A DNA stretch of 64,000 bases from Candidatus Microgenomates bacterium (GTDB lineage: Bacteria > Patescibacteriota > Microgenomatia > JACQLA01). The position numbers were made by a program, and so were the translations under genes. The notes under the pieces are model-generated. The model was not told the origin of the DNA and did no database searches. It saw nothing but the letters and a program-made list of their open reading frames with translations. Below, piece after piece: positions 40,302 through 61,708 of the stretch (the stretch's first letter is position 1; the number at the start of each line of letters is the position of its first letter). The stretch is taken from NCBI GenBank assembly GCA_016204255.1, contig JACQLA010000005.1, positions 132,339 through 196,338 of the forward strand, read 5' to 3'.

Positions 40302-40719
40302 GGGGATGTTAAGATTCGACGGGGAAGCACTTTGAAAACTGCAAGCCGACTTTGATCAAAAGCCGTTAAACAGGGTCAAAAAAACAAATGTCAACAAATT
40401 AGTTGGCAAGGTTACAGGAGCGATGAATGCGTTCGCGCGTGTTTTTACTCCGGTAGCTCCGAATTACGCTTTTGCCTAAAAGCGCTTTGGCGTAAAACGG
40501 CATTTATAGGGTTTTTTCCTGATGAGGCCTTATAGGTGTAAACCTAGTCAGGATGAGAAAAGTTGAGTAGCTGACGTCAGCTTTTCAAATAAAAAGTTAG
40601 CTAGTCTTAATTTTCCAGTCGAAAGGACCAGATTAAGGCGAAACTTTAAATTTCGACTAAGCTTGTAGAAATTTTCAATTTGAATTTCTCGGACCCGGGC
40701 TCATTACCCGGCATCTCCA
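40302..40719 (+). ncRNA. ssrA: tmRNA (ssrA); tag reading frame ends ...APNYAFA* (stop TAA 40477-40479); CCA not encoded
   Basis: 5' GGGGATGTTAAGATTCGACGGGG. 3' T-arm CCGGG/CCCGG. Acceptor GGGGATG pairs with CATCTCC, including the G3:U pair, with discriminator A. Tag ORF gct ccg aat tac gct ttt gcc taa. Confidence 0.8.
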
Positions 40720-40865
40720 CTCTTCGCTCCTAAGGTAAAACTTAGGAGCTGCGAGGTGGCACAGCCACTTTAATTAGTAAGTTCACGGGAATCATAGGCG
40801 GAGAGTGTCCCTACCGTAGCTCGCCAGAGCGAAGGGGGGCTTTTTTATTTTGATAGAATAATTTT

Positions 40866-41108
40866 GTGTATTATGTTTATATATTAAAGCTCAGAGATCA
40901 GACTCATTACATCGGATATTCGGCAGCTTTAAAAGAAAGAGTAAAAGAGCACGCTAAGGGAACTATTTCTCAAACAAAACATCTTTTACCGTGCAATCTT
41001 GTCTTTTATGCGGCTTTCTCATCTAAATTAAAGGCCTTGCAATTCGAAAAATATTTAAAAACTAACTCCGGCTTTGCTTTTAGAAATAAAAGATTGATCG
41101 AAAGATAG
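40866..41108 (+). CDS. small GIY-YIG (URI-domain) nuclease, copy 1 (80 aa)
   Basis: MYYVYILK...HYIGYS...RVKEH...VFYAAF carries the GIY/YIG/R/E pattern; lies 146 nt after the tmRNA 3' end. Confidence 0.8.
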   Translation: MYYVYILKLRDQTHYIGYSAALKERVKEHAKGTISQTKHLLPCNLVFYAAFSSKLKALQFEKYLKTNSGFAFRNKRLIER

Positions 41109-43574: not shown

Positions 43575-43577
43575 CAA

Positions 43578-43644
43578 CGTAAGAAATCGCTAGGCGATTT
43601 CAACGTTGCTGGAGCGTTGAAATTCACGAAGTGAATTTCTTACG
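43578..43644 (+). repeat. 67-nt nested-palindrome leader (element D) between tRNA-Ser(GCT) and GIY-YIG copy 2
   Basis: CGTAAGAAAT|CGC-TAG-GCG|ATTTCAACG-TTGCTGGAG-CGTTGAAAT|TCAC-GAA-GTGA|ATTTCTTACG. All four helices are perfectly complementary. Confidence 0.7.
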
Positions 43645-43652
43645 CTGCCGCC

Positions 43653-43913
43653 ATGTTCTATTATGTATATATTCTCCGAAGCCAAAAAAGTGGTAGTCTG
43701 TATATCGGATATACGACAGATTTAATAAAGAGGTTCGAACAGCATAATAACGGTAAAAGTCAAGCAACAAAGCCATTCCGACCCTATAAACTTATTTATT
43801 ATGAAGCGTTTTTGGATAGAGTTGATGCAAAGAGGAGAGAGGTATATCTGAAAAGTGGATATGGGAGAAAAACGATAAATAGATTACTTAACAAATATTT
43901 AAAGCAGGGTTAG
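43653..43913 (+). CDS. small GIY-YIG nuclease, copy 2 (86 aa)
   Basis: MFYYVYILRS..LYIGYTTDL..RFEQH..LIYYEAF. Confidence 0.85.
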   Translation: MFYYVYILRSQKSGSLYIGYTTDLIKRFEQHNNGKSQATKPFRPYKLIYYEAFLDRVDAKRREVYLKSGYGRKTINRLLNKYLKQG

Positions 43914-45660: not shown

Positions 45661-45662
45661 CA

Positions 45663-45723
45663 ACGTACAAAATCAAAGATTTTTACGTTGCTGAGACGTA
45701 AAATTACTTTGTAATTTGTACGT
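45663..45723 (+). repeat. 61-nt nested-palindrome leader (element A) between tRNA-Arg(GCG) and GIY-YIG copy 3
   Basis: ACGTACAAA|ATC-AAA-GAT|TTTTACGT-TGCTGAG-ACGTAAAA|TTAC-TTT-GTAA|TTTGTACGT. Same architecture as element D with different helix sequences. Confidence 0.7.
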
Positions 45724-45730
45724 CTCGCCC

Positions 45731-45982
45731 ATGTATTTTGTTTATGTGCTCAGAAGCGATAAAGATGCTAGCCTATACATAGGCTATACGGGTAATCTGA
45801 AAAAGCGTTTTATAGAGCACATCACCGGTTTGTCATTAGCCACGAGATATAAAAGACCTTACTCATTGATCTACTATGAAGCTTTTGTAGATAGAGTTGA
45901 CGCAAAAGACAGGGAAATTTATTTGAAAAGCGGCTGGGGCTTTAGAAGCATAAAAAAGATATTAAAGCGGTCTTTAAAGTAG
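45731..45982 (+). CDS. small GIY-YIG nuclease, copy 3 (83 aa; start moved from 45716 to the MYFVYVLRS ATG)
   Basis: MYFVYVLRS..LYIGYTGNL..RFIEH..LIYYEAF. The other copies all start directly at the M(Y/F)(Y/F)VY motif. The stop lies 2 nt before tRNA-Ser(CGA). Confidence 0.85.
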   Translation: MYFVYVLRSDKDASLYIGYTGNLKKRFIEHITGLSLATRYKRPYSLIYYEAFVDRVDAKDREIYLKSGWGFRSIKKILKRSLK

Positions 45983-46267: not shown

Positions 46268-46269
46268 CA

Positions 46270-46312
46270 GCGTCAAACGCGGCTGGGACGTAAAATTACT
46301 GGCAATTTGCGT
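46270..46312 (+). repeat. solo leader-like element C (hairpin, GGCTGGG linker, ACGTAAAATT hairpin) with no GIY-YIG ORF
   Basis: GCG-TCAAA-CGC, GGCTGGG, ACGTAAAATT-ACTGGC-AATTTGCGT. Shares the GCTGGRACGTAAAATTAC core with elements A and B. Confidence 0.6.
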
Positions 46313-51175: not shown

Positions 51176-51236
51176 AATAGGCTGGATTTCTTCTTATTTG
51201 AATGATAAAATAGCAAGCGTAATTTAATACAATCCG

Positions 51237-51287
51237 CCACGTCTAGCGTGGCTGGAACGTAAAATTACTTTGTAATTTATACGTTCC
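51237..51287 (+). repeat. leader element B (hairpin CCACG-TCTAG-CGTGG, CTGGA linker, long hairpin GGAACGTAAAATTAC-TTT-GTAATTTATACGTTCC)
   Basis: The second hairpin differs from that of element A by a single G-to-A substitution (ACGTAAAATTACTTTGTAATTT[G/A]TACGT). Confidence 0.6.
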
Positions 51288-51337
51288 GCGGTAGCTCTCC
51301 GCCAGCTGGCGGAGGTAGAGTGGCGTCCTAAAGATAA

Positions 51338-51589
51338 ATGTATTTTGTGTACGCTATTTATAATAGAAAACACGGTAAAATTTATATTGGGCAAACGAAA
51401 GATTTAGAAACAAGATTGTATCTTCATGAAGAACATGTGTTTAACAATAGTTTTACCGCCATGTTTGATGGAGCTTGGGAATTAATTTATAAAGAGGCGG
51501 TGGAGGATCGCAGACGAGCTTTGTTAAGAGAAAAACAACTCAAAAGTTTTAGAGGAAGAGAATTTGTAAAAAGACATATTCCGCGGTAG
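51338..51589 (+). CDS. small GIY-YIG nuclease, copy 4 (83 aa); stop codon lies inside tRNA-Asn
   Basis: MYFVYAIYN..IYIGQT..RLYLH..LIYKEA; the last codons ccg cgg tag are tRNA-Asn positions 2-10. Confidence 0.75.
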   Translation: MYFVYAIYNRKHGKIYIGQTKDLETRLYLHEEHVFNNSFTAMFDGAWELIYKEAVEDRRRALLREKQLKSFRGREFVKRHIPR

Positions 51590-51654
51590 CTCAATGGTAG
51601 AGCAAATCCCTGTTAAGGATGAGGTTGCTGGTCCGAATCCAGCCCGCGGAGCCA
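51580..51654 (+). tRNA. tRNA-Asn(GTT), CCA encoded
   Basis: Acceptor TCCGCGG/CCGCGGA, D-arm GCTC-AATGGTA-GAGC, anticodon loop CTGTTAA, T-arm GCTGG-TCCGAAT-CCAGC, GCCA 3' end. Confidence 0.85.
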
Positions 51655-51689: not shown

Positions 51690-52373
51690 ATGGCGCCTAC
51701 CCCTTTAGATACAAAACATTATAAGATTCAGAATCTGGAAAAAATTGCTGAATTGGTGGGATGTAAAGATAGACTAGAAAAATATATTGGAGATATAGAA
51801 AAAGTTTTTCCTACCATAGAAGAGATATTCGGTAAAAAATGGAATGACGATTACATTTATATTGAGCTGACTGATTCTACAGATTCTGGTGGATATGGTC
51901 GTCCAGGTGGTCGTCATGCTGTCTCTATAGGAATTTACGATAAAATTATTCAGGAAAAAGAGTATCCAGAAAATTTGTGGGGTTGTTTGCTTCACGAAAC
52001 TTTACATGCATTTATGAATCCAATTATTCATGGACCACCCGAAAGGTCTAAACAGGGAGGTCCAAATAAATTAGATGGATGTTTTGATAATGAACCTTTT
52101 ACTAGAGCTTTCCAAGGATTAGTCTATCTATCTTTGAAGAAAAAAGGGGAGATAACTACCGATTTATGTAATGAGTTTTTAAATAGATTAGAAAACGAAT
52201 TAAATCAAGAAGCACGGATTAGACTTTATAAAAGATATATCACTTTTTTTACGAAAAATGCTAGTTTTTTCTCAATATTTATAAGGAATTTGGATTTGTC
52301 TCCAAGCTCCATTATCCGAGATAATTTTTGGGAAGATTTAGAAAAACTTGAGAAAAAGGTAGAGGGTATTTAA
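51690..52373 (+). CDS. HExxH-motif protein (putative zinc metallopeptidase-like); start moved downstream of the tRNA
   Basis: LLHETLHAFMNP; the track start 51594 lies inside tRNA-Asn, and the first ATG after the tRNA is 51690. Confidence 0.45.
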   Translation: MAPTPLDTKHYKIQNLEKIAELVGCKDRLEKYIGDIEKVFPTIEEIFGKKWNDDYIYIELTDSTDSGGYGRPGGRHAVSIGIYDKIIQEKEYPENLWGCLLHETLHAFMNPIIHGPPERSKQGGPNKLDGCFDNEPFTRAFQGLVYLSLKKKGEITTDLCNEFLNRLENELNQEARIRLYKRYITFFTKNASFFSIFIRNLDLSPSSIIRDNFWEDLEKLEKKVEGI

Positions 52374-52382
52374 TAACCAATT

Positions 52383-54068
52383 TTAGGCAACAGCTGGAAC
52401 AAGAGAGGGTCTGACTTTCTCTATTTCTTCTCTTATCTGCTGAACTAGCCTAAAATCCTCAAAAGTTTTGATAGTACATGCTAATTTTGTGGCTATATTT
52501 GAATTATGATTCTCAGTGCTTATTATGCCAAGTTTAGCCTCGTTGAGGACTTTAAGTGCTGGACTGTATTCAACTTCCACTATTCTCTTATCTTGTAACC
52601 ATATCTTTTGGAAGAAGAAATGCAGATAGGCTCTTTTGTGGTCTATATCAGCTTTGTTGTAGGCTTTGACTATATTTTGAGTAAGGAATAGCACTTCATC
52701 AATAGCGGATATATCAATCGTTCGTACTTTGTCCTGTTCAGCAAGCTCTTTTTGAATATCAAGCAGTTCAGAATCTAACTTTGCATTTATACGTTTAAAT
52801 GCCTCACCGCCAACATTTCCTTCCATCAATTGAGCTTCTAGTTTCTCCCGTTTCATTTCTATACCATCACGTCTGTTGCAGAGAGCCTTTTTAGCTGTTT
52901 TTACTAGACCAACACTGTTGTCATATACTTGTTTAATGTTTGTTGTAACTGCATCAACAAATTCTTGGGTAAACTCAAGTTTGGCTACTTCTTCCTGTAC
53001 TTGTTTCTCTAAATTCTCAAGTTCAACATATTTAGAATCACATTGACCTCTTTTTCCAACCTGAGAACAGTGGTAGTAACCTATTCGACCACCCCTTGTT
53101 TTAAATTTAGGATGATAGTGCCATTCAGCTGTATACCTTTTTTTACAGTTCCGACAAAAGATAAGACCTCTTAAAAGAAAGTTATGTGTTCTTCTTCTCA
53201 ACCCGTAAGTTCCTTTTTCACTGAGTATCCGTTGGACTAGATCAAAAGTTTCCTTATCAATAAGGGAAGTGTGTTTACCCATACCTTCATGCCCGCCATG
53301 CTGCATCCAACCCCAATAAAATTTATTTTTTAACATTGTATGAGTAACTGAGAACTGGATTGGTCTTCCTTTTCTGCCCAAAACACCATTTTTATGTAAG
53401 TATTGTCTGATATCGTATATCGAATAATCCCTCGTGGCATACATTTGAAATGCTTTTGTTATAAATGGCGCTCTTGTAGGGTCAGGAACAACTATCTTTT
53501 TATCGTATACACCTGTTGGGTTCTTATTAACAACATTGTTATAGCCTAGTGGGGCGACTGAAGGATAATAACCTGCTTTGAATTTTTCTGCGGCTGTTTG
53601 TTTTACTTTGTAACTTGTTAATCGAGGCGGGATTGAGTGGATTACTGCTATTAATTCGTCAATGGCATCCCCAAAAGGATTATCATCAAAACTTACTATT
53701 CCTGTTAATGGAATTATTTTTGTATTGTATTTTCGAAGGGTTTGCTTGATGACTAAGTACTCTAATGTATTTCTTGCTACTCTCGAACTATCCTGGACGA
53801 TAACAAAGTCAATATCACCATTAGCACAACGAGTTAATATTTCCTGAAAAGCAAGACGGTTTGTTAGAGAAGTACCCGAAACACCGCCATCGACATAAAC
53901 GTCTTCTACAAGTTCACCATTTAGTTCTTGAACCTTTGTGATTATCTGTGTTTGTTGAACGTCTAAACTAAGTCCATTATCCCGCTGGTCTGGGGTACTT
54001 ACCCTCACGTAACCCAGGCATTTAGGTTTTCCATTATTTGATGTATTTTGTGTTTCTTGTAATTGCAT
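52383..54068 (-). CDS. large serine recombinase (resolvase domain, recombinase domain, zinc ribbon, coiled coil)
   Basis: N-terminal YVRVSTPDQ catalytic Ser context; CRNC...C..C Cys cluster; C-terminal coiled coil; 561 aa. Confidence 0.85.
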   Translation of the reverse strand: MQLQETQNTSNNGKPKCLGYVRVSTPDQRDNGLSLDVQQTQIITKVQELNGELVEDVYVDGGVSGTSLTNRLAFQEILTRCANGDIDFVIVQDSSRVARNTLEYLVIKQTLRKYNTKIIPLTGIVSFDDNPFGDAIDELIAVIHSIPPRLTSYKVKQTAAEKFKAGYYPSVAPLGYNNVVNKNPTGVYDKKIVVPDPTRAPFITKAFQMYATRDYSIYDIRQYLHKNGVLGRKGRPIQFSVTHTMLKNKFYWGWMQHGGHEGMGKHTSLIDKETFDLVQRILSEKGTYGLRRRTHNFLLRGLIFCRNCKKRYTAEWHYHPKFKTRGGRIGYYHCSQVGKRGQCDSKYVELENLEKQVQEEVAKLEFTQEFVDAVTTNIKQVYDNSVGLVKTAKKALCNRRDGIEMKREKLEAQLMEGNVGGEAFKRINAKLDSELLDIQKELAEQDKVRTIDISAIDEVLFLTQNIVKAYNKADIDHKRAYLHFFFQKIWLQDKRIVEVEYSPALKVLNEAKLGIISTENHNSNIATKLACTIKTFEDFRLVQQIREEIEKVRPSLVPAVA

Positions 54069-54146
54069 AGTTTAATGATTTATTAGTGATCTATATTTAT
54101 ATTTTCAATGGTTTTAGGTTCAATGGCACCGACCAACCTCTGTTGA

Positions 54147-54425
54147 TTATGCTTCTTGCATCTGGTTGAGCAATAGCCCACACCAAGCCTTAGCCAACTT
54201 TTCTACTTCTTTATTAGCTTGACCGGGGGTAGTATCTTTCCTTTGAACCAACTTTCTACCTAGCCCATTTCCTTTTATGGAATTATTAGTTTTAACTGAT
54301 ATCTCTCTTTGTGATATAAGGGCGGATGTGGCCTTACTGCCATTTCTATTAACTATTTGCTTAGAGTCTCGAACTTCGAGGCTAGGAACTCTTAAAATAG
54401 TCTTATTTTGTAAATTTGTAGTCAT
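54147..54425 (-). CDS. hypothetical protein (92 aa)
   Basis: ORF track; co-oriented with its neighbours. Confidence 0.35.
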   Translation of the reverse strand: MTTNLQNKTILRVPSLEVRDSKQIVNRNGSKATSALISQREISVKTNNSIKGNGLGRKLVQRKDTTPGQANKEVEKLAKAWCGLLLNQMQEA

Positions 54426-54464
54426 GTGTTTTTAGTTAAAAATCAATGCAATCTTTTATTTTTT

Positions 54465-55187
54465 TTAGCTAGTAATTAAATGTTTTCGGTATTCATCCCA
54501 ATTGCCATCAAAGAAAACATTTACAACATCTTTTTCTTGCTGATCGTCTTCAATTTCAACCTTTTCTCTGACGTTTTCATCAATCCATCTCATGTCTTCC
54601 GTGGATAAGTTTTGAAAATTATTTTCGTGTCGAATTTTAAGATAATCAGCTTCACTTCTTACTGATTGACTAATAAGAACTACTTTCTTAGAATCATTAA
54701 AAGGAACCCTATACTTACCCTTAGAAGAACCTAGAGCTTTAGATGTGTCTTTTAAGGCTAAAACAGTATTATTTAAAGGGTTTATTTCCGTCTTTTCAGG
54801 GGAAAAACAGATATTTTGAAGGATAAAATCCAAGGTTGGGGTATTTTTTTCGCTCTTAGCAAATTCATTCGCTTTGCCACCAAATGCAGTTACATATCTT
54901 TTAGGTGATTTAATTCTAAATATTTCCCGTTTTTTGTTAACTAGCTCAATAAATCCTTTATTTAACAGTCCGTTGTGCCAATCCTTGATAGTTTCTTCTT
55001 CTTTATTGAAGTATTGTTTTGTTTCTTCGGTAAATGCTACAAATAATCCAAAATTCTCATGACTGAGATCAAAGTCCATTGAGTCAAGATAAAACTCAAA
55101 CAATAGAAATTCTTGAGGTGCTAAAACACCATTTTTAAGAAGTAACCACCTGTTTCTATGACTTGCTCTGTGTCCGCTTATCTTCAT
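54465..55187 (-). CDS. hypothetical protein (240 aa)
   Basis: ORF track; no motif recognised. Confidence 0.45.
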   Translation of the reverse strand: MKISGHRASHRNRWLLLKNGVLAPQEFLLFEFYLDSMDFDLSHENFGLFVAFTEETKQYFNKEEETIKDWHNGLLNKGFIELVNKKREIFRIKSPKRYVTAFGGKANEFAKSEKNTPTLDFILQNICFSPEKTEINPLNNTVLALKDTSKALGSSKGKYRVPFNDSKKVVLISQSVRSEADYLKIRHENNFQNLSTEDMRWIDENVREKVEIEDDQQEKDVVNVFFDGNWDEYRKHLITS

Positions 55188-55254
55188 AACCCAATTTTAT
55201 CTGTCTTTGGGTTTGAATCTGCGGTCAGTTGTGAGGGGTAAATAAGTGCGACAA

Positions 55255-56253
55255 TTAGCGGTCAATGAGTTTGTGAAGATTGCTCCAATTATCAAGTTTG
55301 TCAGGAACAGCATTTTTTATTCTTTTATTCATTCTGTTTACTATTTTCCGAATACTTTCCAACTCTAGGTATTTGATTCTCTTAGCTTCTTTTCTATCTA
55401 TACTTTTTTCTGCTTTATCTTTTACCGCTTCCTCTTTTTTTACATTGGAATAAATTTTATCACCACGTTGCCTGCTGGTTTTATGGTTGATATAGGAGCG
55501 ATAGATAAAATAATCTCTTTTAATGTCATCTGTTTTAGATTCGTTATCCCTAGTAGAACTTTTTATCTCTGTTAACCCTATTGTTATGTTTTTTCGGTTT
55601 CTTTCAATTAATTCTTCAAGGTCTTTGAATGTAGTACCAGGGTAAAGTGTTATTGATAGTGTTACTCTTTTTCCTGATTTCATACGGATATTTATACTTT
55701 GTTCATCGAATACTGCATTCCAGTTTTCTAATGTTTTTAAAATACGTTCTGGGTATAATAAAATTAAGAGCTGTCTTAATATAATGATCCAACTAGCCAT
55801 ATTTCTTGTATCCCTCAATTTTAGGAAGGACATCATAATATGGATAGGAGTATTTACCAGCTCTTGACATACTGATTGACGAGAAATATGGGAAATTTTT
55901 CTTTTTGCATTTGAACGAGCTAACTTTTTTAGTATTGACTCTTCTGTTTTTTTAATCATAATTGCTATCTTGGGGTCTATTATTTTTCCTGATCTATATT
56001 CTGTTACGACCTCGTGTATTTTTTGTTGCCACTCTTGAAACTCTGGCTCACTTTTAAATCCATCTATAGGTATGTATATGCTTAAACGACTACCCCTTAG
56101 TAAATATTGGAAGTCTTTATTTAGAAGAATGTATATAACATAGTTAAGTATGTTTTTTGAGTGATTATTGAGTTCATATTCGCTTGCCTTCTCAAGCAGG
56201 GTGTTTATGTATTCATCAATACGAGGGGTAATAACATTGTCTAAATAACCCAT
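55255..56253 (-). CDS. hypothetical protein (332 aa), basic C-terminal tail
   Basis: ORF track; no motif recognised. Confidence 0.45.
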   Translation of the reverse strand: MGYLDNVITPRIDEYINTLLEKASEYELNNHSKNILNYVIYILLNKDFQYLLRGSRLSIYIPIDGFKSEPEFQEWQQKIHEVVTEYRSGKIIDPKIAIMIKKTEESILKKLARSNAKRKISHISRQSVCQELVNTPIHIMMSFLKLRDTRNMASWIIILRQLLILLYPERILKTLENWNAVFDEQSINIRMKSGKRVTLSITLYPGTTFKDLEELIERNRKNITIGLTEIKSSTRDNESKTDDIKRDYFIYRSYINHKTSRQRGDKIYSNVKKEEAVKDKAEKSIDRKEAKRIKYLELESIRKIVNRMNKRIKNAVPDKLDNWSNLHKLIDR

Positions 56254-56345
56254 GTTTTATAATTTTCTTAATTTTCACCCTCTATTCTACTAAGAAATGA
56301 GCTAAAGTTACCAGTTTTACCAGAAAGAGCGAGGGGAAAGATGAG

Positions 56346-57032
56346 TTAGTTGCTGATTTTCCATAAATCACTGCAATTATAGATACCGCAATCAATCGTA
56401 AGGCTTTGAGTGGAAACTGTTGTCCCTATGCCTATTGTTCCTGTTCCTTGTATTAACACTCCATTATTGCTCGGATTACTGAAATTTAATAATCCCCATG
56501 TTGGAAATGGCCTATCGGGAACAGTAATAGTTTGTTTTTTGTGTTTTTCTGTTCCTTGCCAGAAAACATAAACATCTGTTTCAAAAGTAGTTCCGCTCGG
56601 CGGAATATTACTTGTTCTAAATGTAATTCCATGGCAATTACCAGCACCGTAGATGTCTCCGGTACTTAAATGAGCGGTTGCTCTTGCAGTTGCATCTGAA
56701 TCAATTACTGCATTATTCCACGAGCAGTTGTTCGGTGGGGTGGTGGGTATAGTGAGGGGACTATCACCAGTAGTTCGCAGAATGAATCTGTCTTCATAAA
56801 ACTCAGTACCCCATTGATTAGGTAAATCAAACTCAACTTTCTTTTCCAATTCAGCAATTCTTATTTCGTGGTTATCTATTTTCTGAATTAGAGAGTTTAT
56901 AGAATCTTGAATTGGCTTTATTGCATTAGTGAACCAAGGGGGAAGAAGAGAGTTTTCTTTTGCATATATTGGGGAAGCTACAATTATAAGCAACACCAAA
57001 ATAACAAATGACAGACTAATTATCTTCTTCAT
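56346..57032 (-). CDS. secreted hypothetical protein (228 aa)
   Basis: Signal peptide MKKIISLSFVILVLLIIVASPIYA, short coiled coil, beta-rich C-terminus with 4 Cys. Confidence 0.5.
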   Translation of the reverse strand: MKKIISLSFVILVLLIIVASPIYAKENSLLPPWFTNAIKPIQDSINSLIQKIDNHEIRIAELEKKVEFDLPNQWGTEFYEDRFILRTTGDSPLTIPTTPPNNCSWNNAVIDSDATARATAHLSTGDIYGAGNCHGITFRTSNIPPSGTTFETDVYVFWQGTEKHKKQTITVPDRPFPTWGLLNFSNPSNNGVLIQGTGTIGIGTTVSTQSLTIDCGIYNCSDLWKISN

Positions 57033-57150
57033 AATTTTCTCTATAAATATATCTTAGTATTTCTAAGAGTTAATATCAACCCATTTTCAAGGCGAGTTGC
57101 TTAGAAATATTTAGTTGAGTATAGGCTTCTGGCATATCACAATTTTATAT

Positions 57151-57372
57151 ATGCCGAAAACAACAGATGAGACACTAAAAAGCCTGGGTAAGAAAGTACA
57201 AAAGCTAAGGAAGGAACAGAACTTAACCCAAGAGGAATTAGCCCATCAATTAAGTATCTCAAGGGTTTATATGGGGTATATTGAACAAGGGCGAGAGAGT
57301 CCCTCGTTAAAGCTCCTGATGAAAATATCACGAAAGTTTAATGTAAAAGTTGAAGACTTGTTTCACAGATAA
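57151..57372 (+). CDS. XRE-family helix-turn-helix transcriptional regulator (73 aa)
   Basis: LRKEQNLTQEELAHQLSISRVYMGYIEQGRESPSLKLLMKISRKFNV is an HTH_3 signature; start moved to the ATG at 57151. Confidence 0.75.
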   Translation: MPKTTDETLKSLGKKVQKLRKEQNLTQEELAHQLSISRVYMGYIEQGRESPSLKLLMKISRKFNVKVEDLFHR

Positions 57373-57406
57373 ATTTTATTTACCAATCTTGAATATTTAG
57401 TAGATA

Positions 57407-58435
57407 TGTAGCGAAATAACTGTCAGCATTTCCCCTTACCCCATCTGTTAGGTTGGAACTCTGGTAAAGTTATATATACATGCAATAGTTTGGATAGGTA
57501 AGTCCAGATTTTGCTGATTTGTAATCCTGCCTCTGAACTTCTGGTTTAAAATCCCAAAGTGTTTTAGGTAAGAGAGTGAATGTTCTACTCTTACCCTAAT
57601 GGAGGAAATAGTCCTGTTGGCAGCTTTTTCCTCTTGTGAAAGTTCTCCTCCAGGTGGTTTCTTTTTAGGAATAACCATTTTAAGATGGGAGTTGTTCCCA
57701 TCAGCTCCCTGGTAGGCCGAATCACCCATACCCACTGAATCCGGTGGAGCTCTTAAGAAAGCAGGATCATAATCAAAGATCTTTTTGTCATGAATGGTTC
57801 CGGGCAGAGTCGGAGAGACAGACAGAATCCTGTTAGTTTGGGGTGAAACCAGAATTTGATTTTTAATACAATGTGCTTTCTTTTTACCTGAGTAATGTTC
57901 CTGTTGAATACGATTATCTTTTGGCCTTTGAATTAATCTCTCTGTACAGTCAATAATGAACTCAGCAAGTTCCGGATATTCCTCCAGCCATAAATCCCAC
58001 CTTGAGATTCTTTTTCTAACCTTAAGTGTTAACTCATACCCTAATGTAGAAAACAGCACTGAAGCCAGGAATTTAACCCACAGCTGAATGTTCCTTTTAT
58101 CCAGTCCATAGATGACCTGGGCAAACCTGAAAGTGGGATAGGTTTTGTAGTAAAAGAGGATGAAGAAGAGCTTTTGATAGTCATCTGCTAACTTGGCTTT
58201 TCTTCCTCCGCCAATCTCCCGGAGTCTTTTCCTTGAATATGCTTTTTTAATTTCAGCTTGTCTTAAAACCCCGGTAAATTTAGGCAACAGTTTCTGAAAC
58301 TGACTGAAGGTAATGCCAATTACATATTGAAAAAGTTCTCTGTGTTTGAGAAGATATTCCTGGTTTAACATTTAAGGCAGGTCTAACTGGAAAAATTAAG
58401 CCTGCCTTAATATTAACAGGTATTATTTCGCTACA
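57407..58435 (-). mobile_element. insertion sequence with perfect 13-bp terminal inverted repeats (TGTAGCGAAATAA) and a DDE_Tnp_4-type transposase
   Basis: 57407-57419 tgtagcgaaataa equals the reverse complement of 58423-58435 ttatttcgctaca, bracketing the single transposase ORF. Confidence 0.75.
57448..58371 (-). CDS. DDE transposase (DDE_Tnp_4 / Harbinger-PIF-like, IS5-related)
   Basis: IIDCTERLIQRP, GMGDSAYQG and IRVRVEHSLSYLK give a D-D-E triad context; N-terminal HTH region. Confidence 0.75.
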   Translation of the reverse strand: MLNQEYLLKHRELFQYVIGITFSQFQKLLPKFTGVLRQAEIKKAYSRKRLREIGGGRKAKLADDYQKLFFILFYYKTYPTFRFAQVIYGLDKRNIQLWVKFLASVLFSTLGYELTLKVRKRISRWDLWLEEYPELAEFIIDCTERLIQRPKDNRIQQEHYSGKKKAHCIKNQILVSPQTNRILSVSPTLPGTIHDKKIFDYDPAFLRAPPDSVGMGDSAYQGADGNNSHLKMVIPKKKPPGGELSQEEKAANRTISSIRVRVEHSLSYLKHFGILNQKFRGRITNQQNLDLPIQTIACIYNFTRVPT

Positions 58436-58442
58436 AGTTTAG

Positions 58443-59333
58443 TTATTCGTTAGCTTGGAGACGTTTAGTTATTAATTCGTAGAATTCTTTTTCTTTCTCA
58501 ATAGCAATATATCTTCTTTTATATTTTTGAGTTACTAAAGGTAGAGTACCGCTTCCTGCGAATGGGTCAATAATTATATCTTTTTCTTTTGTTGCTCCAA
58601 TGACAATCCTTTTAATTATTTCTATTGGTTTTTGAGTAGGATGTTTACCTTGTTTTCTCTCAGCTGTAGGAGTACCTAGAACATCCCACATATTGCGCAT
58701 CTGCAGATTTATTGATTTTAAATTGTTATTACCACAGAATGGGCAATATTTATAATTTGAGTCTAGAGTCTTTTTACATTTATCACATTTTTTTATTTGA
58801 TTAAGTTTTTTTATTGCAGCATAGTTAAATGTCCAATTTTTGGCTTCTTTTTGTGAATTGTTTACTGCCCAGATAATAAATTCAGTGCTATCACATAACA
58901 TTCTATGGGTGATATTAGGAAAGGCATTTCTTTTATACCAAGTTATGAAGTTAAGTATTTTTTTACCCTCCTTTTCTAAAATTGAAGCGATTTTAAAGAT
59001 GTTATGATGACTACCGAAAATTATAATATTGCCATTTGGTTTAATAATTCTAAATATTTCTTTCAACCACACTTGAGTAAAATCCTCATACGTTTTGTTT
59101 GAAAAACTATCCCATTTCTCATCTACTTTATTAAAATTTTTTTCACCTGTCCAATAACCGTTAGACTTTAACCATCCAATTTTTTTCTTTCCGTCATATC
59201 CTGAAATATTATAAGGTGGGTCTGTTATGCAATGGTCAACAGAATGAGCTTCAATTTTAGGTAGAACTAACAAAGAATCATTCAGTATGAGGTTGTTTTC
59301 TAGCCCTGAGTTATAATCTGTGTTTATTTTCAT
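58443..59333 (-). CDS. beta-class N6/N4 DNA methyltransferase (DPPY type) with inserted zinc ribbon
   Basis: Motif IV CITDPPYN near the N-terminus, motif I IIDPFAGSGT near the C-terminus, insert CDKCKK..CPFCG. Confidence 0.8.
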   Translation of the reverse strand: MKINTDYNSGLENNLILNDSLLVLPKIEAHSVDHCITDPPYNISGYDGKKKIGWLKSNGYWTGEKNFNKVDEKWDSFSNKTYEDFTQVWLKEIFRIIKPNGNIIIFGSHHNIFKIASILEKEGKKILNFITWYKRNAFPNITHRMLCDSTEFIIWAVNNSQKEAKNWTFNYAAIKKLNQIKKCDKCKKTLDSNYKYCPFCGNNNLKSINLQMRNMWDVLGTPTAERKQGKHPTQKPIEIIKRIVIGATKEKDIIIDPFAGSGTLPLVTQKYKRRYIAIEKEKEFYELITKRLQANE

Positions 59334-59411
59334 AATAATTCTCTTTATAAGTCATCACTATGCTAGAATATCTACATACAAATTTTATCAGATTCTTGGT
59401 TGGATTGAACT

Positions 59412-60383
59412 ATGGAAGATGAATTGAAAACTCTTATTAACAGATTAGTAAATATCCAAGATGAAATATTGAGCAAGTACGGGTTAGTGGATATTTACTC
59501 TAGTAGCAAAATATTCGAGATTATTATTTCAGATTGCTTAAATCATATTTTGTTACCCAGTCATGCAGGCTCAAGAGATGGAAAGGATGATTCAGGAGAA
59601 TATGAATATAAACACTATAAAGAATCAAGCTCCAATCATAGTTGGACGTTCAATGATTTTAGCGATACTACTATTGAAAAATTAAATCATTGTTATGTTG
59701 TTATTTTTGCCCACATTGAAGACCAGAAAGAATTGCCAGAGTTTGATTGGTTTTATCAAGTTCCGGGTAAAGTAATTAGTGGTTATTTGAAACAAGCGAC
59801 TATAAAAATTAAAAATACAAGAAAAATGATTAACGTCAGCCCTTCGCAAATAGAGAGTGTTATGGGAATAAATAAAACTTTTACCAAAAACCTTCCTTGT
59901 AAGCATTTTTACACCTCTTATTTAAAAGAAATATTTTCGGTAACAAGAAGAATTGAAAAAATCGTAGGCACAAAAGATATTTTAACAAGCAACAAGCTCT
60001 GGGAAATATTAGTTTCCTTACAGACAGGACATAAAGTACTTTCTGAACAAAAAGCTCATGATGCTGTTGATGAAAAAGGAGAATTCTATGAATATAAAGT
60101 AGCACGAAATTATTCATGGAATTTTGAAGATATTTCCCCTAAGGTCTTATCGAAATTTTTACAAGAAAAAGCTGTTGTTTTGGCAATAATAGATAAGGCA
60201 AGGATGAAAATATTAAAAATCTTTTTTGCTGACCCAATTAAAGTGGTAAAAAGATTAGAAGAAAAACTTGAAGAAAAAAGAATTCGCTTCAGTAAAGAAG
60301 GCAAGGTTGTAAGAAGATTGCAGGTTTCATTAAGCGCTGGAGACCTTGCGAAAGTAGAAGCCAGTCAAGTATTTCCTCGATAA
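59412..60383 (+). CDS. putative restriction endonuclease built from two tandem homologous PD-(D/E)xK-like halves
   Basis: Sandwiched between the two MTases. Internal repeat: FEII..RDGKDDSGEYEYKHY..HSWTFNDFS versus WEIL..HDAVDEKGEFYEYKVA..YSWNFEDIS (E...D...ExK pattern in each half). Confidence 0.45.
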   Translation: MEDELKTLINRLVNIQDEILSKYGLVDIYSSSKIFEIIISDCLNHILLPSHAGSRDGKDDSGEYEYKHYKESSSNHSWTFNDFSDTTIEKLNHCYVVIFAHIEDQKELPEFDWFYQVPGKVISGYLKQATIKIKNTRKMINVSPSQIESVMGINKTFTKNLPCKHFYTSYLKEIFSVTRRIEKIVGTKDILTSNKLWEILVSLQTGHKVLSEQKAHDAVDEKGEFYEYKVARNYSWNFEDISPKVLSKFLQEKAVVLAIIDKARMKILKIFFADPIKVVKRLEEKLEEKRIRFSKEGKVVRRLQVSLSAGDLAKVEASQVFPR

Positions 60384-60387
60384 TTGA

Positions 60388-61092
60388 CTAAAATAGAGTG
60401 GTTGGGGTTGTTCCTACTCGTTCTATTGCTTTTTTACAGTATTCCTTGTCAATTTCAAATCCAATATAATTCCTTTTTAAGATTTTACATGCTGCAGCGG
60501 TAGTTCCGCTTCCCATAAATGGGTCAACTACTAAGTCATCTTTGTTTGTGGTTAACTCTATTAGTTTTTCAATTAATTCGAGCGGTTTTTGTGTAGGGTG
60601 TATTCTGTTTTTTCCCTTAGGAGCCTGAAATTTTAGAATATTGTGTTGATAGTTACTATTCCAAGTTGATCCTGGCTTTTTACCTATAATTGCCACTTCC
60701 CATGCATTTAAAAATCTTGACTTAGCATTTAATGGTAAAGGGTCAGGTTTTTGCCAAGCCAAAGCATCAACCGCTATGAATCCATCTTTTTCCAAAGCAT
60801 TCCAATAGATTCCTAAGTCCTTTTTAGCACAAAACGAAATAAACCACCCTTTTACTTTTGGTATACTTATTCCTATCCATTCCTCATTAAACTTATCCCA
60901 CTCTCCAAATTCGAAGTCTAATTTAGCAGTTGTTCCCAGTCGTTTACCCTTACAATTTAATTTTTTACTGATTCCATATGGAGGGTCAGCAATTAAAAGG
61001 TCAATTGAATTGTCGGGGAGTTCTTTTAGACCTTCCAAACAATCAATACATTGAATTGTGTTTAACCAGCTCTGGATAATATTATTTGTCAT
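60388..61092 (-). CDS. beta-class N6/N4 DNA methyltransferase (DPPY type), second copy
   Basis: LIADPPYG (motif IV) and VVDPFMGSGT (motif I). Confidence 0.8.
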   Translation of the reverse strand: MTNNIIQSWLNTIQCIDCLEGLKELPDNSIDLLIADPPYGISKKLNCKGKRLGTTAKLDFEFGEWDKFNEEWIGISIPKVKGWFISFCAKKDLGIYWNALEKDGFIAVDALAWQKPDPLPLNAKSRFLNAWEVAIIGKKPGSTWNSNYQHNILKFQAPKGKNRIHPTQKPLELIEKLIELTTNKDDLVVDPFMGSGTTAAACKILKRNYIGFEIDKEYCKKAIERVGTTPTTLF

Positions 61093-61096
61093 TGTT

Positions 61097-61708
61097 TTAA
61101 ATCGAACTATTTCTAATCAATCCTTTAAATATACCTCTAATTTCTAACGAATGGGGATAAATATTTTCTAACCGTTTATTTCTTGGCTCTAAGAATATTG
61201 TACCGTTTTTGCTTCTAAATATTTTAAGTGTTGCACCACCTTCAGTAACTGCAACTACAGTATCTCCGTTATCGGCAGTTTGTTGACTTTTAATTACTAC
61301 AATATCTCCATTCCAAATACCATCTTCAATCATACTATCACCCTTAACTTTTAAAGCATAGAAATCACCTTGTCTTGAGACTAAATTCTTGGGTACTTTT
61401 ATCGGTTCTGGATTCTCAATAGGCTCTATTGGTGTTCCAGCAGCTATAATTCCCAAAAGAGGAATTTCTACTGAATCGGGTGTTTGCTCAAACAGAGATA
61501 CTCCTCGTGGTTGATTTTCCTCTTTTTTCAGATAACCTTTGGTTTCCAGGGCTTTAACGTGTTGATGTACTGTTGAGATAGCAAGCTCAAATTTCTTACC
61601 TATCTCCTCCAAAGAGGGGGCATACCCCTTATCAGTAGAAAAAGATGTAATGAAATCAAGTATGTGCTTCTGCTTAGGGGTCAATGTCCTCTTGAGTTTT
61701 CCATTCAT
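61097..61708 (-). CDS. lexA: LexA-type repressor (LexA DNA-binding domain plus S24 peptidase)
   Basis: LTPKQKHILDFI..GYAPSLEEIG...VHQHVKALETKGYL; Ala-Gly cleavage context IIAAGTPIEP; catalytic GDSM and ..TLKIF Lys context. Confidence 0.8.
   Translation of the reverse strand: MNGKLKRTLTPKQKHILDFITSFSTDKGYAPSLEEIGKKFELAISTVHQHVKALETKGYLKKEENQPRGVSLFEQTPDSVEIPLLGIIAAGTPIEPIENPEPIKVPKNLVSRQGDFYALKVKGDSMIEDGIWNGDIVVIKSQQTADNGDTVVAVTEGGATLKIFRSKNGTIFLEPRNKRLENIYPHSLEIRGIFKGLIRNSSI

Follow-up and report, generated by a model that had tools for sequence, protein, structure and literature searches.

A free-standing gene for a small GIY-YIG nuclease is interlocked with the gene for tRNA-Asn in a 64,000-nucleotide (nt) stretch of DNA from Candidatus Microgenomates bacterium (assembly GCA_016204255.1, contig JACQLA010000005.1, positions 132,339 to 196,338 of the forward strand), referred to here as the window. 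The nuclease open reading frame (ORF), copy 4 of the four GIY-YIG copies in the window, lies between a displaced fragment of the tRNA-Asn 5' end, interrupted by a 16-nt palindrome, and an intact tRNA-Asn that supplies its stop codon. At a probability of about 0.6, the locus is read as a selfish, free-standing GIY-YIG cassette within the tRNA-Asn transcription unit of Patescibacteria. The arrangement is widespread in this group and apparently hitherto undescribed, and a literature search returned nothing relevant on GIY-YIG proteins linked to tRNA-Asn, Patescibacteria or YhbQ.

The coordinates of the locus are collected in Table 1. The 13-mer TCCGCGGTAGCTC is found at 51285-51297 and 51580-51592 and nowhere else in the 64 kb when two mismatches are allowed, and its second copy forms positions 1-13 of tRNA-Asn(GTT), which was called at 51580-51654 by ARAGORN and at 51580-51651 by Rfam (RF00005, 66.1 bits). 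The first copy continues as the hairpin TCCGCCAGCTGGCGGA (51298-51313), a 6-bp stem with a 4-nt loop of which this is the sole exact copy in the window, then as GGTAGAG, and beyond 51320 is unlike the window's own tRNA-Asn. The spacer that follows (51321-51337) differs from the anticodon stem of that tRNA, AAATCC, and can be aligned to GGCTCCCTGTTAA-AGATAAA of a relative, L084, whose fragment reaches tRNA position 38. The final codons of the ORF, ATT CCG CGG TAG, run over tRNA-Asn positions 1-10, such that the TAG is formed by nucleotides 8-10. An earlier note on this DNA had described the repeat, the hairpin and its continuation, and the ORF with its stop inside the tRNA, and the window scan, ARAGORN and Rfam bear it out on each; frequent recurrence of the 13-mer, which it had named as grounds for doubt, is not seen in the window. 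The cassette and flank (660 bases) are base-identical in an NCBI assembly (GCA_964420235.1) and in a Logan run; a second such run gave a 2.8-kb contig with zero mismatches to the window. Because assembly and runs agree, the arrangement is not an assembly accident. An Rfam scan gave no Intron_gpI match in the window, and the ORF, 5' of the tRNA, does not lie within such an intron.

A scan of one genome per species gave 341 relatives, a lower bound since a peptide-pattern search was used, and the best 80 of these 341 loci were analysed. An ordered module recurs in about 76 of the 80, across many phyla of the Candidate Phyla Radiation (CPR): a promoter-like flank, positions 1-13 of the locus's own tRNA-Asn, the palindrome TCCGCC-N4-GGCGGA, positions 18-26, the ORF and the intact tRNA-Asn. 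After the palindrome, the fragment sometimes runs on to the anticodon loop. The palindrome is followed 230-700 nt further on by a tRNA-Asn(GTT) in 64 loci; in 11 the ORF is followed by the 5' exon of a tRNA-Asn only (an intron or contig end), in one tRNA-Lys stands in place of tRNA-Asn, and four are variants or truncated. Chance is excluded because the order of fragment, palindrome, ORF and tRNA recurs in about 76 of 80 independent genomes. ORF and tRNA overlap by exactly 10 nt in 32 of the 73 scored loci, a count that rises to 35 with a tolerance of one base in the calling of the tRNA start. For tRNAs with TGG in place of TAG at positions 8-10, the ORF continues to the next in-tRNA stop, and therefore has no terminator of its own. 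The stop-in-tRNA arrangement is a conserved, family-wide architecture over many CPR phyla, and not a recent event that is peculiar to this genome.

The fragment is tied to the tRNA that it accompanies. With few exceptions, the loci have the first 13 nt of the resident tRNA-Asn, the palindrome and GGTAGAGC..., in this order, ahead of the ORF. In 54 of 60 other loci, fragment and resident tRNA have the same 7-nt acceptor strand, with 17 different 7-mers represented, while random re-pairing of fragment and tRNA 7-mers gives 7.5 matches on average and at most 16. The acceptor strands differ in six loci, including L022, L048, L049 and L064, and none of these is compensatory with the 3' acceptor strand; RNA-level pairing between this strand and the fragment is thus unsupported as the cause of the co-variation. 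The per-position identity of fragment and own tRNA, computed over 43 loci, is 0.91-1.00 at positions 1-13 and 18-26 (among them 4-7 and 26, which are variable), then 0.40-0.60 at positions 27-31 and 0.19-0.44 at positions 32-36. Both flanks of the palindrome therefore match the resident tRNA, and the dinucleotide AT at -2/-1 is also common to fragment and tRNA. The modal end of homology is position 26. The match reaches the anticodon loop (positions 33-38) in L006, L022, L047, L051, L052, L076 and L084, as well as in two forms in which the D-arm is replaced (L075 and L082); it extends to position 38 in L006, L051 and L084, and past about position 39 in no locus. Identity of the fragment with exactly the 5' exon (positions 1-35) of an intron-bearing tRNA was considered and holds for a subset only, given the modal end at 26.

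The palindrome is the second constant part of the module. Of 73 loci, 69 have the strict form TCCG[C/G]C-N4-G[C/G]CGGA no more than 130 nt 5' of the ATG and three more have a one-base variant; 11-47 nt (median 20) separate the end of the palindrome from the ATG. The arms read TCCGCC/GGCGGA in 67 loci and carry the symmetric double change TCCGGC/GCCGGA in two, and the 4-nt centre is variable (AGCT in 47, AACT in 11, others in 11). Family ORFs have diverged to 60-70% amino-acid identity while the arms stay invariant, which means sequence-specific selection beyond the maintenance of a hairpin. The commonest site is between C13/A14 and G18, and other lineages place the palindrome after position 3-4 (L013, L016, L034), after position 8 (L056), after position 10 with replacement of the D-arm (L032, L058, L068, L075, L082), after position 21 (L067) or after position 25 (L051). 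In L020, L023, L024, L026, L033, L057 and L084 the palindrome is nested in itself. It is an element of 16 nt, near-invariant and with a low-copy distribution of its own. The earlier note had taken the upstream copy for a decayed or disrupted tRNA 5' fragment; it is a disrupted tRNA-Asn 5' fragment, but the hairpin within it is not incidental decay.

An empty site is found in L182, whose RpoD is 84% identical and which is among the closest RpoD relatives. The order there is dnaG-rpoD-23S_rRNA_IVP-tRNA-Asn, and neither a GIY-YIG gene nor the palindrome was found at the locus. In L084 and L085, which carry the nearest relative of the ORF (86% amino-acid identity), rpoD is followed by a 3'-end remnant of the 23S_rRNA_IVP gene, the fragment, a nested palindrome, the ORF and tRNA-Asn. 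About 165 nt 5' of the intact tRNA in L182 can be aligned to the flank of the fragment in L084/L085, up to TCCGCGGTAGCTC, and therefore the fragment is the original tRNA 5' end behind its native flank. By the same alignment, the DNA from the palindrome through the second copy of the 5' end is added relative to L182. The orthologous site is polymorphic for the cassette, being empty in L182 and filled in L084/L085 and in the window, with a homologous upstream flank. Positions 1-25 and 44-76 of tRNA-Asn are the same in the window and in L182. Promoter-like boxes are enriched at the same flank: 43 of 62 loci have a -10-like hexamer at a distance of 3-40 nt on the 5' side of the fragment (16 with exact TATAAT), compared to 15 of 62 (2 exact) in a control window. 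Comparison with a relative that lacks the ORF, as the earlier note had suggested, thus supports the core of its insertion reading, that the ORF came with added DNA and an intact tRNA was regenerated downstream; the 13-nt target-site duplication in that reading does not stand.

Several loci bear signs of recombination. Re-iterated units are seen in six (L008, L010, L011, L032, L045, L068), in which the end of the ORF is followed again by positions 1-13 and the palindrome, a whole or deleted second ORF, and then the tRNA. In one Wolfebacteria genome (L069, 3940-4320), the ORF family and palindrome reside on tRNA-Lys(TTT), with a fragment derived from tRNA-Lys and a 10-nt overlap, and the ORF stop again falls on tRNA nucleotides 8-10. 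The anticodon stems differ fully, on both strands, between the window (AAATCC/GGATGA) and L182 (GCTCGC/GCGAAG), and L084 has a third version; the window fragment keeps GGCGTCC, which is nearer to the L084 stem GGCTCC than to its own tRNA. Between window 51604-51623 and L182 6001-6020, the anticodon stem forms a mosaic centred on the intron/cassette site. The tRNA-Asn of L084 (483-558) has acceptor strands unpaired at 5-68 and 6-67 (5' TCCGCGG, 3' CGCCGGA), and that of L085 (510-582), with upstream sequence common to L084, has perfect acceptor pairing. The L084 tRNA is either a recombinant or a metagenome assembly chimera.

Group I introns are found in the same tRNA genes. An intron (RF00028, 59-88 bits) interrupts the adjacent tRNA-Asn after ...CTGT, at position 35/36, in at least 7 of the 80 loci (L009, L011, L014, L056, L060, L062 and L063), and three more (L021, L035, L039) were recognised by eye; intron-bearing tRNA-Asn genes were missed by ARAGORN. 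In the cassette loci, the introns sit inside the tRNA, downstream of the ORF. Group I introns at 35/36 of tRNA-Asn and tRNA-Asp of Patescibacteria have been described by Nakagawa et al. (2026), who demonstrated that they splice themselves and reported HNH genes in four of those in tRNA-Asn; in their conclusion, most introns are without homing endonucleases, which would leave those of tRNA-Asn hardly mobile (PMC13011429). The extra ORF with a CxxC motif that is held by the L014 and L063 introns is probably of this HNH type. In that study, endonuclease genes were sought inside introns only, and GIY-YIG genes, palindromes and duplications are unmentioned (PMC13011429). At least seven contigs of metagenome-assembled genomes (MAGs) end within a few bases of the tRNA-Asn 3' end (L006, L012, L021, L049, L067, L073, L078), and L084 and L085 diverge within or after tRNA-Asn, which suggests either strain-variable downstream DNA or assembly breaks caused by the repeat.

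The nuclease itself is predicted to be intact. The copy-4 ORF matches PF01541 (GIY-YIG) over residues 1-70 with 52.9 bits (cut-off 22.6, E 4.5e-14), and Y5, Y16, G18, R26 and E65 are invariant, and H30 nearly so, in a set of 25 sequences, the four window copies among them. By alignment to I-TevI, Y5, Y16, R26 and E65 are the putative catalytic residues. The AlphaFold model (mean predicted local distance difference test score 95.5) has the order beta-beta-alpha-beta-alpha-alpha of the GIY-YIG topology. In Foldseek searches, UPF0213 proteins (1zg2, 1ywl), Slx1 and HIGLE, a resolvase of plants, rank first, followed by I-TevI and UvrC; the probability is 0.92-1.00 for 1zg2, 6seh, 4xm5, 1ywl and 7wme, and all top PDB matches are GIY-YIG proteins. 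The nearest solved structure by sequence is the I-TevI catalytic domain (E 0.005), and the match to TIGR01453 ('group I intron endonuclease') is confined to residues 2-34 and, at 26 bits, below the cut-off of 56. With catalytic residues kept and a confidently modelled fold, the protein looks like an intact GIY-YIG nuclease. Homologues from many CPR lineages are 60-86% identical; nearly all are 82-86 amino acids long with a C-terminus that reads ...IP[R/L/G/A], which is what fusion of the ORF to N-CCN-NNN-TAG, the tRNA positions 1-10, would give.

In the reading favoured here, the 5' part of the original tRNA gene (from about -2 to 26, or at most to the anticodon loop) remains behind its native, promoter-like flank, disabled by the palindrome in its D-loop. 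Downstream of the fragment, the ORF is followed by a second, complete 5' part that restores an intact tRNA-Asn, with the ORF ending on U8-A9-G10 of the restored tRNA, and ORF and tRNA are probably both transcribed from the tRNA promoter. An ORF that has no stop of its own and ends in the tRNA cannot be parted from this essential gene by imprecise deletion. Spread may occur by homologous recombination, either nuclease-stimulated or mediated by transformation (DNA uptake), with tRNA sequence as the homology arms. Perfect positions 1-13 would be accounted for if the tRNA stays live only after crossovers 5' of the palindrome. The initiating break would fall in or near the D-loop or the anticodon region of a cassette-free tRNA-Asn gene, and the acceptor/D-arm of tRNA-Asn as putative cleavage target is a reasonable hypothesis. 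The palindrome would be a required cis-site: an operator or binding site, whether of the nuclease or of some other protein, or else a cruciform substrate.

Several points weigh against a selfish cassette. Target site, cleavage activity and mode of transfer are all things that we infer. Because the fragment matches the resident tRNA on both sides of the palindrome, the match is compatible both with a duplicated target and with co-transfer of fragment and tRNA, and the empty site of L182 could reflect loss instead of absence of gain. The carrier keeps an intact tRNA-Asn, so its immunity to its own nuclease is unexplained: a purely intragenic target in tRNA-Asn, the acceptor/D-arm sequence among the candidates, is still present beside the ORF, except at the roughly 10% of loci that carry an intron. 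The protein of 83 amino acids is a bare catalytic domain with no separate domain for DNA binding or target recognition, and the nearest folds (UPF0213, Slx1, HIGLE) are structure-selective, not sequence-specific homing enzymes. A mean column identity of 71% at fixed length is unusual for homing endonuclease genes, and such strong conservation is compatible with a host-beneficial or regulatory role. Carriage by phage was considered and rejected: IMG/VR viral contigs hold no true family member of the copy-4 nuclease, and for this reason no vector is known.

The alternative that survives best, unlikely as we judge it, is that the locus is a domesticated operon, in which a vertically inherited host GIY-YIG gene is co-transcribed with tRNA-Asn, the fragment and palindrome serve as regulatory leader or operator, and the patchy distribution results from repeated, precise loss through the direct repeats. 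The conserved protein of fixed length with intact catalytic residues would be expected of such a gene. The palindrome, with invariant 6-nt arms around a variable 4-nt centre, resembles a dimeric operator, and its position ahead of the ATG fits as well, with a -10-like box between palindrome and ATG in 18 of 62 loci. The rpoD neighbourhood is common to the window, L085 and L182, and a shallow vertical signal is seen in the pairing of loci from Daviesbacteria, Gottesmanbacteria and Paceibacterota. No such signal extends to the superphylum level, however: ORF identity is 0.613 within and 0.609 between Microgenomates and Parcubacteria, a comparison that for a short and possibly saturated protein reveals shallow clustering only. 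Vertical inheritance is also difficult to reconcile with the lack of the cassette at the orthologous site of as close a relative as L182, with only 341 relatives (as a lower bound) in species-representative genomes, and with the tandem units and the tRNA-Lys variant. Moreover, a regulatory leader need not copy the acceptor strand of its tRNA, and the cases that do not match are not compensatory.

A more doubtful alternative takes the 16-nt palindrome, as a low-copy CPR motif dispersed at hairpin tips, for the mobile or recognised unit, with the Slx1/UPF0213-like nuclease acting on its cruciform. Breaks beside its own gene would drive duplication, excision and transfer, and tRNA-Asn fragments would be survivable landing sites. 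The nearest folds are indeed branched-DNA nucleases, and the position of the palindrome in the fragment varies between lineages. The palindrome also turns up at diverse other sites. Mirror-image cases exist, in which 3' tRNA-Asn fragments with the palindrome in the T-loop lie 25-50 nt 3' of an intact tRNA with no ORF between (Table 1); further copies are located in a loop of the tRNA-Asn group I intron of L035 (4337-4352), in-frame in dnaG of L021 (355-372, read as IRQLAD) and between genes in L038 (1299-1314), 25 nt before lepA. Unrelated CPR loci contain 3 matches in 229 kb (L194 346 and L261 2488 among the sites), where about 0.01 are expected, and in low-GC viral contigs the palindrome caps longer hairpins. 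However, most matches in viral contigs lie in GC-rich DNA at about chance level, duplications of the arms can come from slippage, no mechanism is known for the insertion of a templated 16-mer, and the 64-kb window holds a single copy. With about one copy per 70 kb elsewhere, an abundant dispersed repeat is ruled out. A bolder version is doubtful too: the protein of 83 amino acids and the palindrome may together be a minimal mobile system of a new kind, in which a structure-selective, Slx1/UPF0213-like nuclease recognises the TCCGCC-N4-GGCGGA cruciform or hairpin at the ends of the D-arm, the T-arm or other stems and, through the breaks that it makes, drives its own duplication, excision and horizontal re-insertion at tRNA-Asn, and the palindrome would be a dispersed CPR 'nano-element'.

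Transposition with a 13-bp target-site duplication in the D-arm of tRNA-Asn, close to what the earlier note proposed as the footprint, would account for the perfect direct repeat that brackets the ORF and for a palindrome placed exactly at the 13/14 junction. It is very improbable, because the 43 aligned loci match their own tRNA from about -2 to 26 across the palindrome, and some up to 38. The duplicated tract is thus about 28-40 nt and variable, which misfits a fixed staggered cut; an inserting element would need positions 18-26 to match each host by chance, and no transposase or terminal inverted repeats belonging to the cassette were found. Hardly any credence is given to an inert relic, a decayed tandem duplicate of tRNA-Asn around an unrelated small ORF with no functional link, which would suit a fragment without its 3' half and the decayed anticodon-stem part in the window, but not an ordered module with invariant palindrome, 10-nt overlap and co-variation in about 76 of 80 genomes from many phyla.

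Table 1. Features of the cassette locus and of its surroundings (window coordinates unless a locus is named)
Feature	Position	Strand	Remarks
Displaced 5' fragment, part 1	51285..51297	+	tRNA-Asn positions 1-13: acceptor 5' strand, U8 A9, D-stem 5' half
Palindrome 'pal', TCCGCC-AGCT-GGCGGA	51298..51313	.	in place of D-loop nucleotides 14-16
Displaced 5' fragment, part 2, GGTAGAG	51314..51320	+	tRNA positions 18-24: D-loop GG and D-stem 3' half
Spacer	51321..51337	+	decayed anticodon-stem remnant (TGGCGTCCT) and AAAGATAA, then ATG
GIY-YIG ORF (copy 4), 83 amino acids	51338..51589	+	without own stop; uses TAG, tRNA nucleotides 8-10
Intact tRNA-Asn(GTT), intron-less	51580..51654	+	first 10 nt shared with the end of the ORF
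Two intergenic hairpins	51236..51287	+	hpA 51236-51252 and hpB 51254-51287; abut fragment; context only
Hairpin pairs	43576-43650, 45662-45727, 46269-46310, 51236-51287		A/T-rich
3' tRNA-Asn fragments with T-loop palindrome	L023 4343-4385, L048 4370-4415, L074 1375-1460		no ORF between
Downstream island	51690-61600; L001 5368-15363		227-amino-acid ORF with no family match; helix-turn-helix protein; DDE transposase; LexA/S24-like protein
Island: large serine recombinase	52383-54068		minus strand; CcrB/XisF-like
Island: two N6/N4 DNA methylases			flanking a 323-amino-acid ORF

The other GIY-YIG copies of the window also keep company with tRNA-like genes. The family of copy 1 (40866-41108), of 78-80 amino acids with homologues 63-78% identical in Microgenomates, is directly downstream of smpB and the transfer-messenger RNA (tmRNA) in 3 of 3 relatives examined (loci L266-L269). 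A full-length tmRNA at 40302-40722 scores 119 bits with Rfam and was not reported by ARAGORN, and a conserved set of hairpins lies between the tmRNA and the copy-1-family ORF. The GTAGCTC..GCCAG string before copy 1 (40816-40827; GTAGCTCGCCAG), which the earlier note had related to the repeat at copy 4, is coincidental. It belongs to a terminator-like hairpin downstream of the tmRNA that is conserved in relatives, where it reads CGGAGCTTTAGCG and similar and is neither tRNA fragment nor palindrome; GTAGCTC is present 7 times in the window, with 3.2 expected, and a second tRNA fragment or palindrome at copy 1 is ruled out. Close relatives (at least 57% identity) of copies 2 and 3 (43653-43913 and 45731-45982) mostly lie 69-161 nt downstream of a same-strand tRNA, usually tRNA-Ser of any anticodon, and distant relatives are not tRNA-linked (loci L186-L265). 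An empty site for copy 3 is found in L184 (1-1300), which has the same array of Ser and Arg tRNAs with 73 nt between tRNA-Arg(gcg) and tRNA-Ser(cga). Every small GIY-YIG subfamily of the window is thus tied to a particular tRNA-like gene, and in a wider version of the proposed minimal mobile system, distinct small GIY-YIG subfamilies would each be dedicated to one such gene (tmRNA, tRNA-Ser and tRNA-Asn in the window). The architecture of fragment, palindrome and overlap is found only in the tRNA-Asn family among these subfamilies.

Pairs of A/T-rich hairpins with ACGT-containing stems stand directly after tRNA 3' ends in the window, following tRNA-Ser(gct), tRNA-Arg(gcg) and tRNA-Ser(gga), and one pair (hpA/hpB) precedes the tRNA-Asn fragment. 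The second hairpin has the same 28-nt pattern, with one free position (G or A), at 45696-45723 and 51257-51284. The two-hairpin layout is shared by L184 with a different sequence (CACTAAAAAA...TTTTTCAGTG). That hpA and hpB mark the ends of the cassette is ruled out by the equivalent pairs after other tRNAs in the window and by the analogous pair in the ORF-free tRNA spacers of L184; they are the ordinary trailer hairpins of tRNAs and genes in this genome. Candidate roles for such pairs are terminator, processing signal or repeat of the repetitive extragenic palindromic (REP) type. Downstream of tRNA-Asn, the window and L001 carry an island with a large serine recombinase. No tRNA-Asn 3' fragment that could serve as its attachment (att) site was found in the window, and a faint Pfam hint of a PvuII-like enzyme in the island, which would recognise the CAGCTG core of the palindrome, was not reproduced.

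The minimal genomes of Patescibacteria still keep selfish RNA and DNA elements in essential genes. Here a nuclease gene is interlocked with a tRNA gene that is itself an intron target, in hundreds of species-level genomes, and about 10% of the sampled loci lie beside an intron. If the cassette is an active homing or recombination element, it is a candidate driver of the spread of introns and of mosaic tRNA-Asn sequences between relatives, and it would show how a 75-nt essential gene can be colonised without an intron, by duplication of half of it. In that case, tRNA-Asn DNA with and without the palindrome would be a concrete substrate for probing the function of the widespread orphan UPF0213-like mini-nucleases. 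The locus also matters for annotation and assembly, given that several MAG contigs break here and the ORF stop codon is inside the tRNA.

Among known systems, the closest are the mobile ORFs (mORFs) of fungal mitochondria, which consist of an endonuclease ORF and a duplicated end of the host gene, as in atp6 of Allomyces macrogynus and in atp6, atp9, cox2 and nad3 of Glomus (PMC3630166). Like the cassette, mORFs are free-standing endonuclease ORFs in an essential gene, that in atp9 being of the GIY-YIG type (PMC3630166). In both, the second copy of the gene end preserves function and the native end is the displaced fragment at the original flank, and some mORFs, as the cassette ORF, are without their own stop and continue in frame with host sequence. 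The ORF of the cassette is flanked by a functional and a truncated copy of the host gene, and the truncated copy is the native one at its native flank, as the alignment of L182 with L084/L085 and the enrichment of promoter boxes show. Unlike mORFs, the cassette has a bacterial tRNA and not a protein gene as host, duplicates the 5' end and encodes a nuclease of only 83 amino acids; its fragment carries a conserved 16-nt palindrome and stays identical to the functional copy at positions 1-26, where that of mORFs diverges. By this analogy, the best-supported reading is that the cassette may be a bacterial tRNA counterpart of the fungal mitochondrial mobile ORFs.

The 35/36 group I introns (PMC13011429) share gene and phylum with the cassette, and the longest fragments end at or near 35/36. 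The window tRNA-Asn is intron-less, in contrast, and the GIY-YIG ORF of the cassette is outside the tRNA and any intron. The Seg proteins of T-even phages are free-standing GIY-YIG homing endonucleases, with SegB in the T4 tRNA gene cluster, and free-standing endonucleases that act with introns are known from 'collaborative homing'. Seg genes and the cassette alike lie between or next to genes, are co-inherited with flanking markers and are tied to tRNA genes and intron-bearing targets, whereas Seg proteins, about 200 amino acids long, have DNA-binding domains, polymorphism of the target protects the genome that encodes them, and neither partial gene duplication nor palindrome is present. The best structural matches to the copy-4 model, UPF0213 (BH0048, EF2693; YhbQ/YazA-type) and Slx1/HIGLE, include proteins near the cassette protein in size (UPF0213, about 80-100 amino acids) with sequence identity of only 20-26%. 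The literature search recorded no tRNA linkage for UPF0213/YhbQ-type proteins, and Slx1 needs Slx4.

Integrative elements that use tRNA genes carry a copy of the tRNA end, regenerate the gene and leave a partial direct repeat. The cassette resembles them in the regeneration of an intact tRNA and in the partial copy that stands as a direct repeat. Integrative elements, however, are kilobases in length, depend on integrases and duplicate the tRNA 3' end, whereas the cassette duplicates the 5' end with an insert of about 290 nt and has no recombinase of its own; the serine recombinase of the downstream island is on the other side of the tRNA from the cassette. Lastly, I-TevI represses its own expression through an operator that resembles its homing site. 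By analogy, the cassette may be similar in having a target-like sequence just 5' of a GIY-YIG gene, overlapping the promoter region, with the difference that I-TevI binds through a separate DNA-binding domain.

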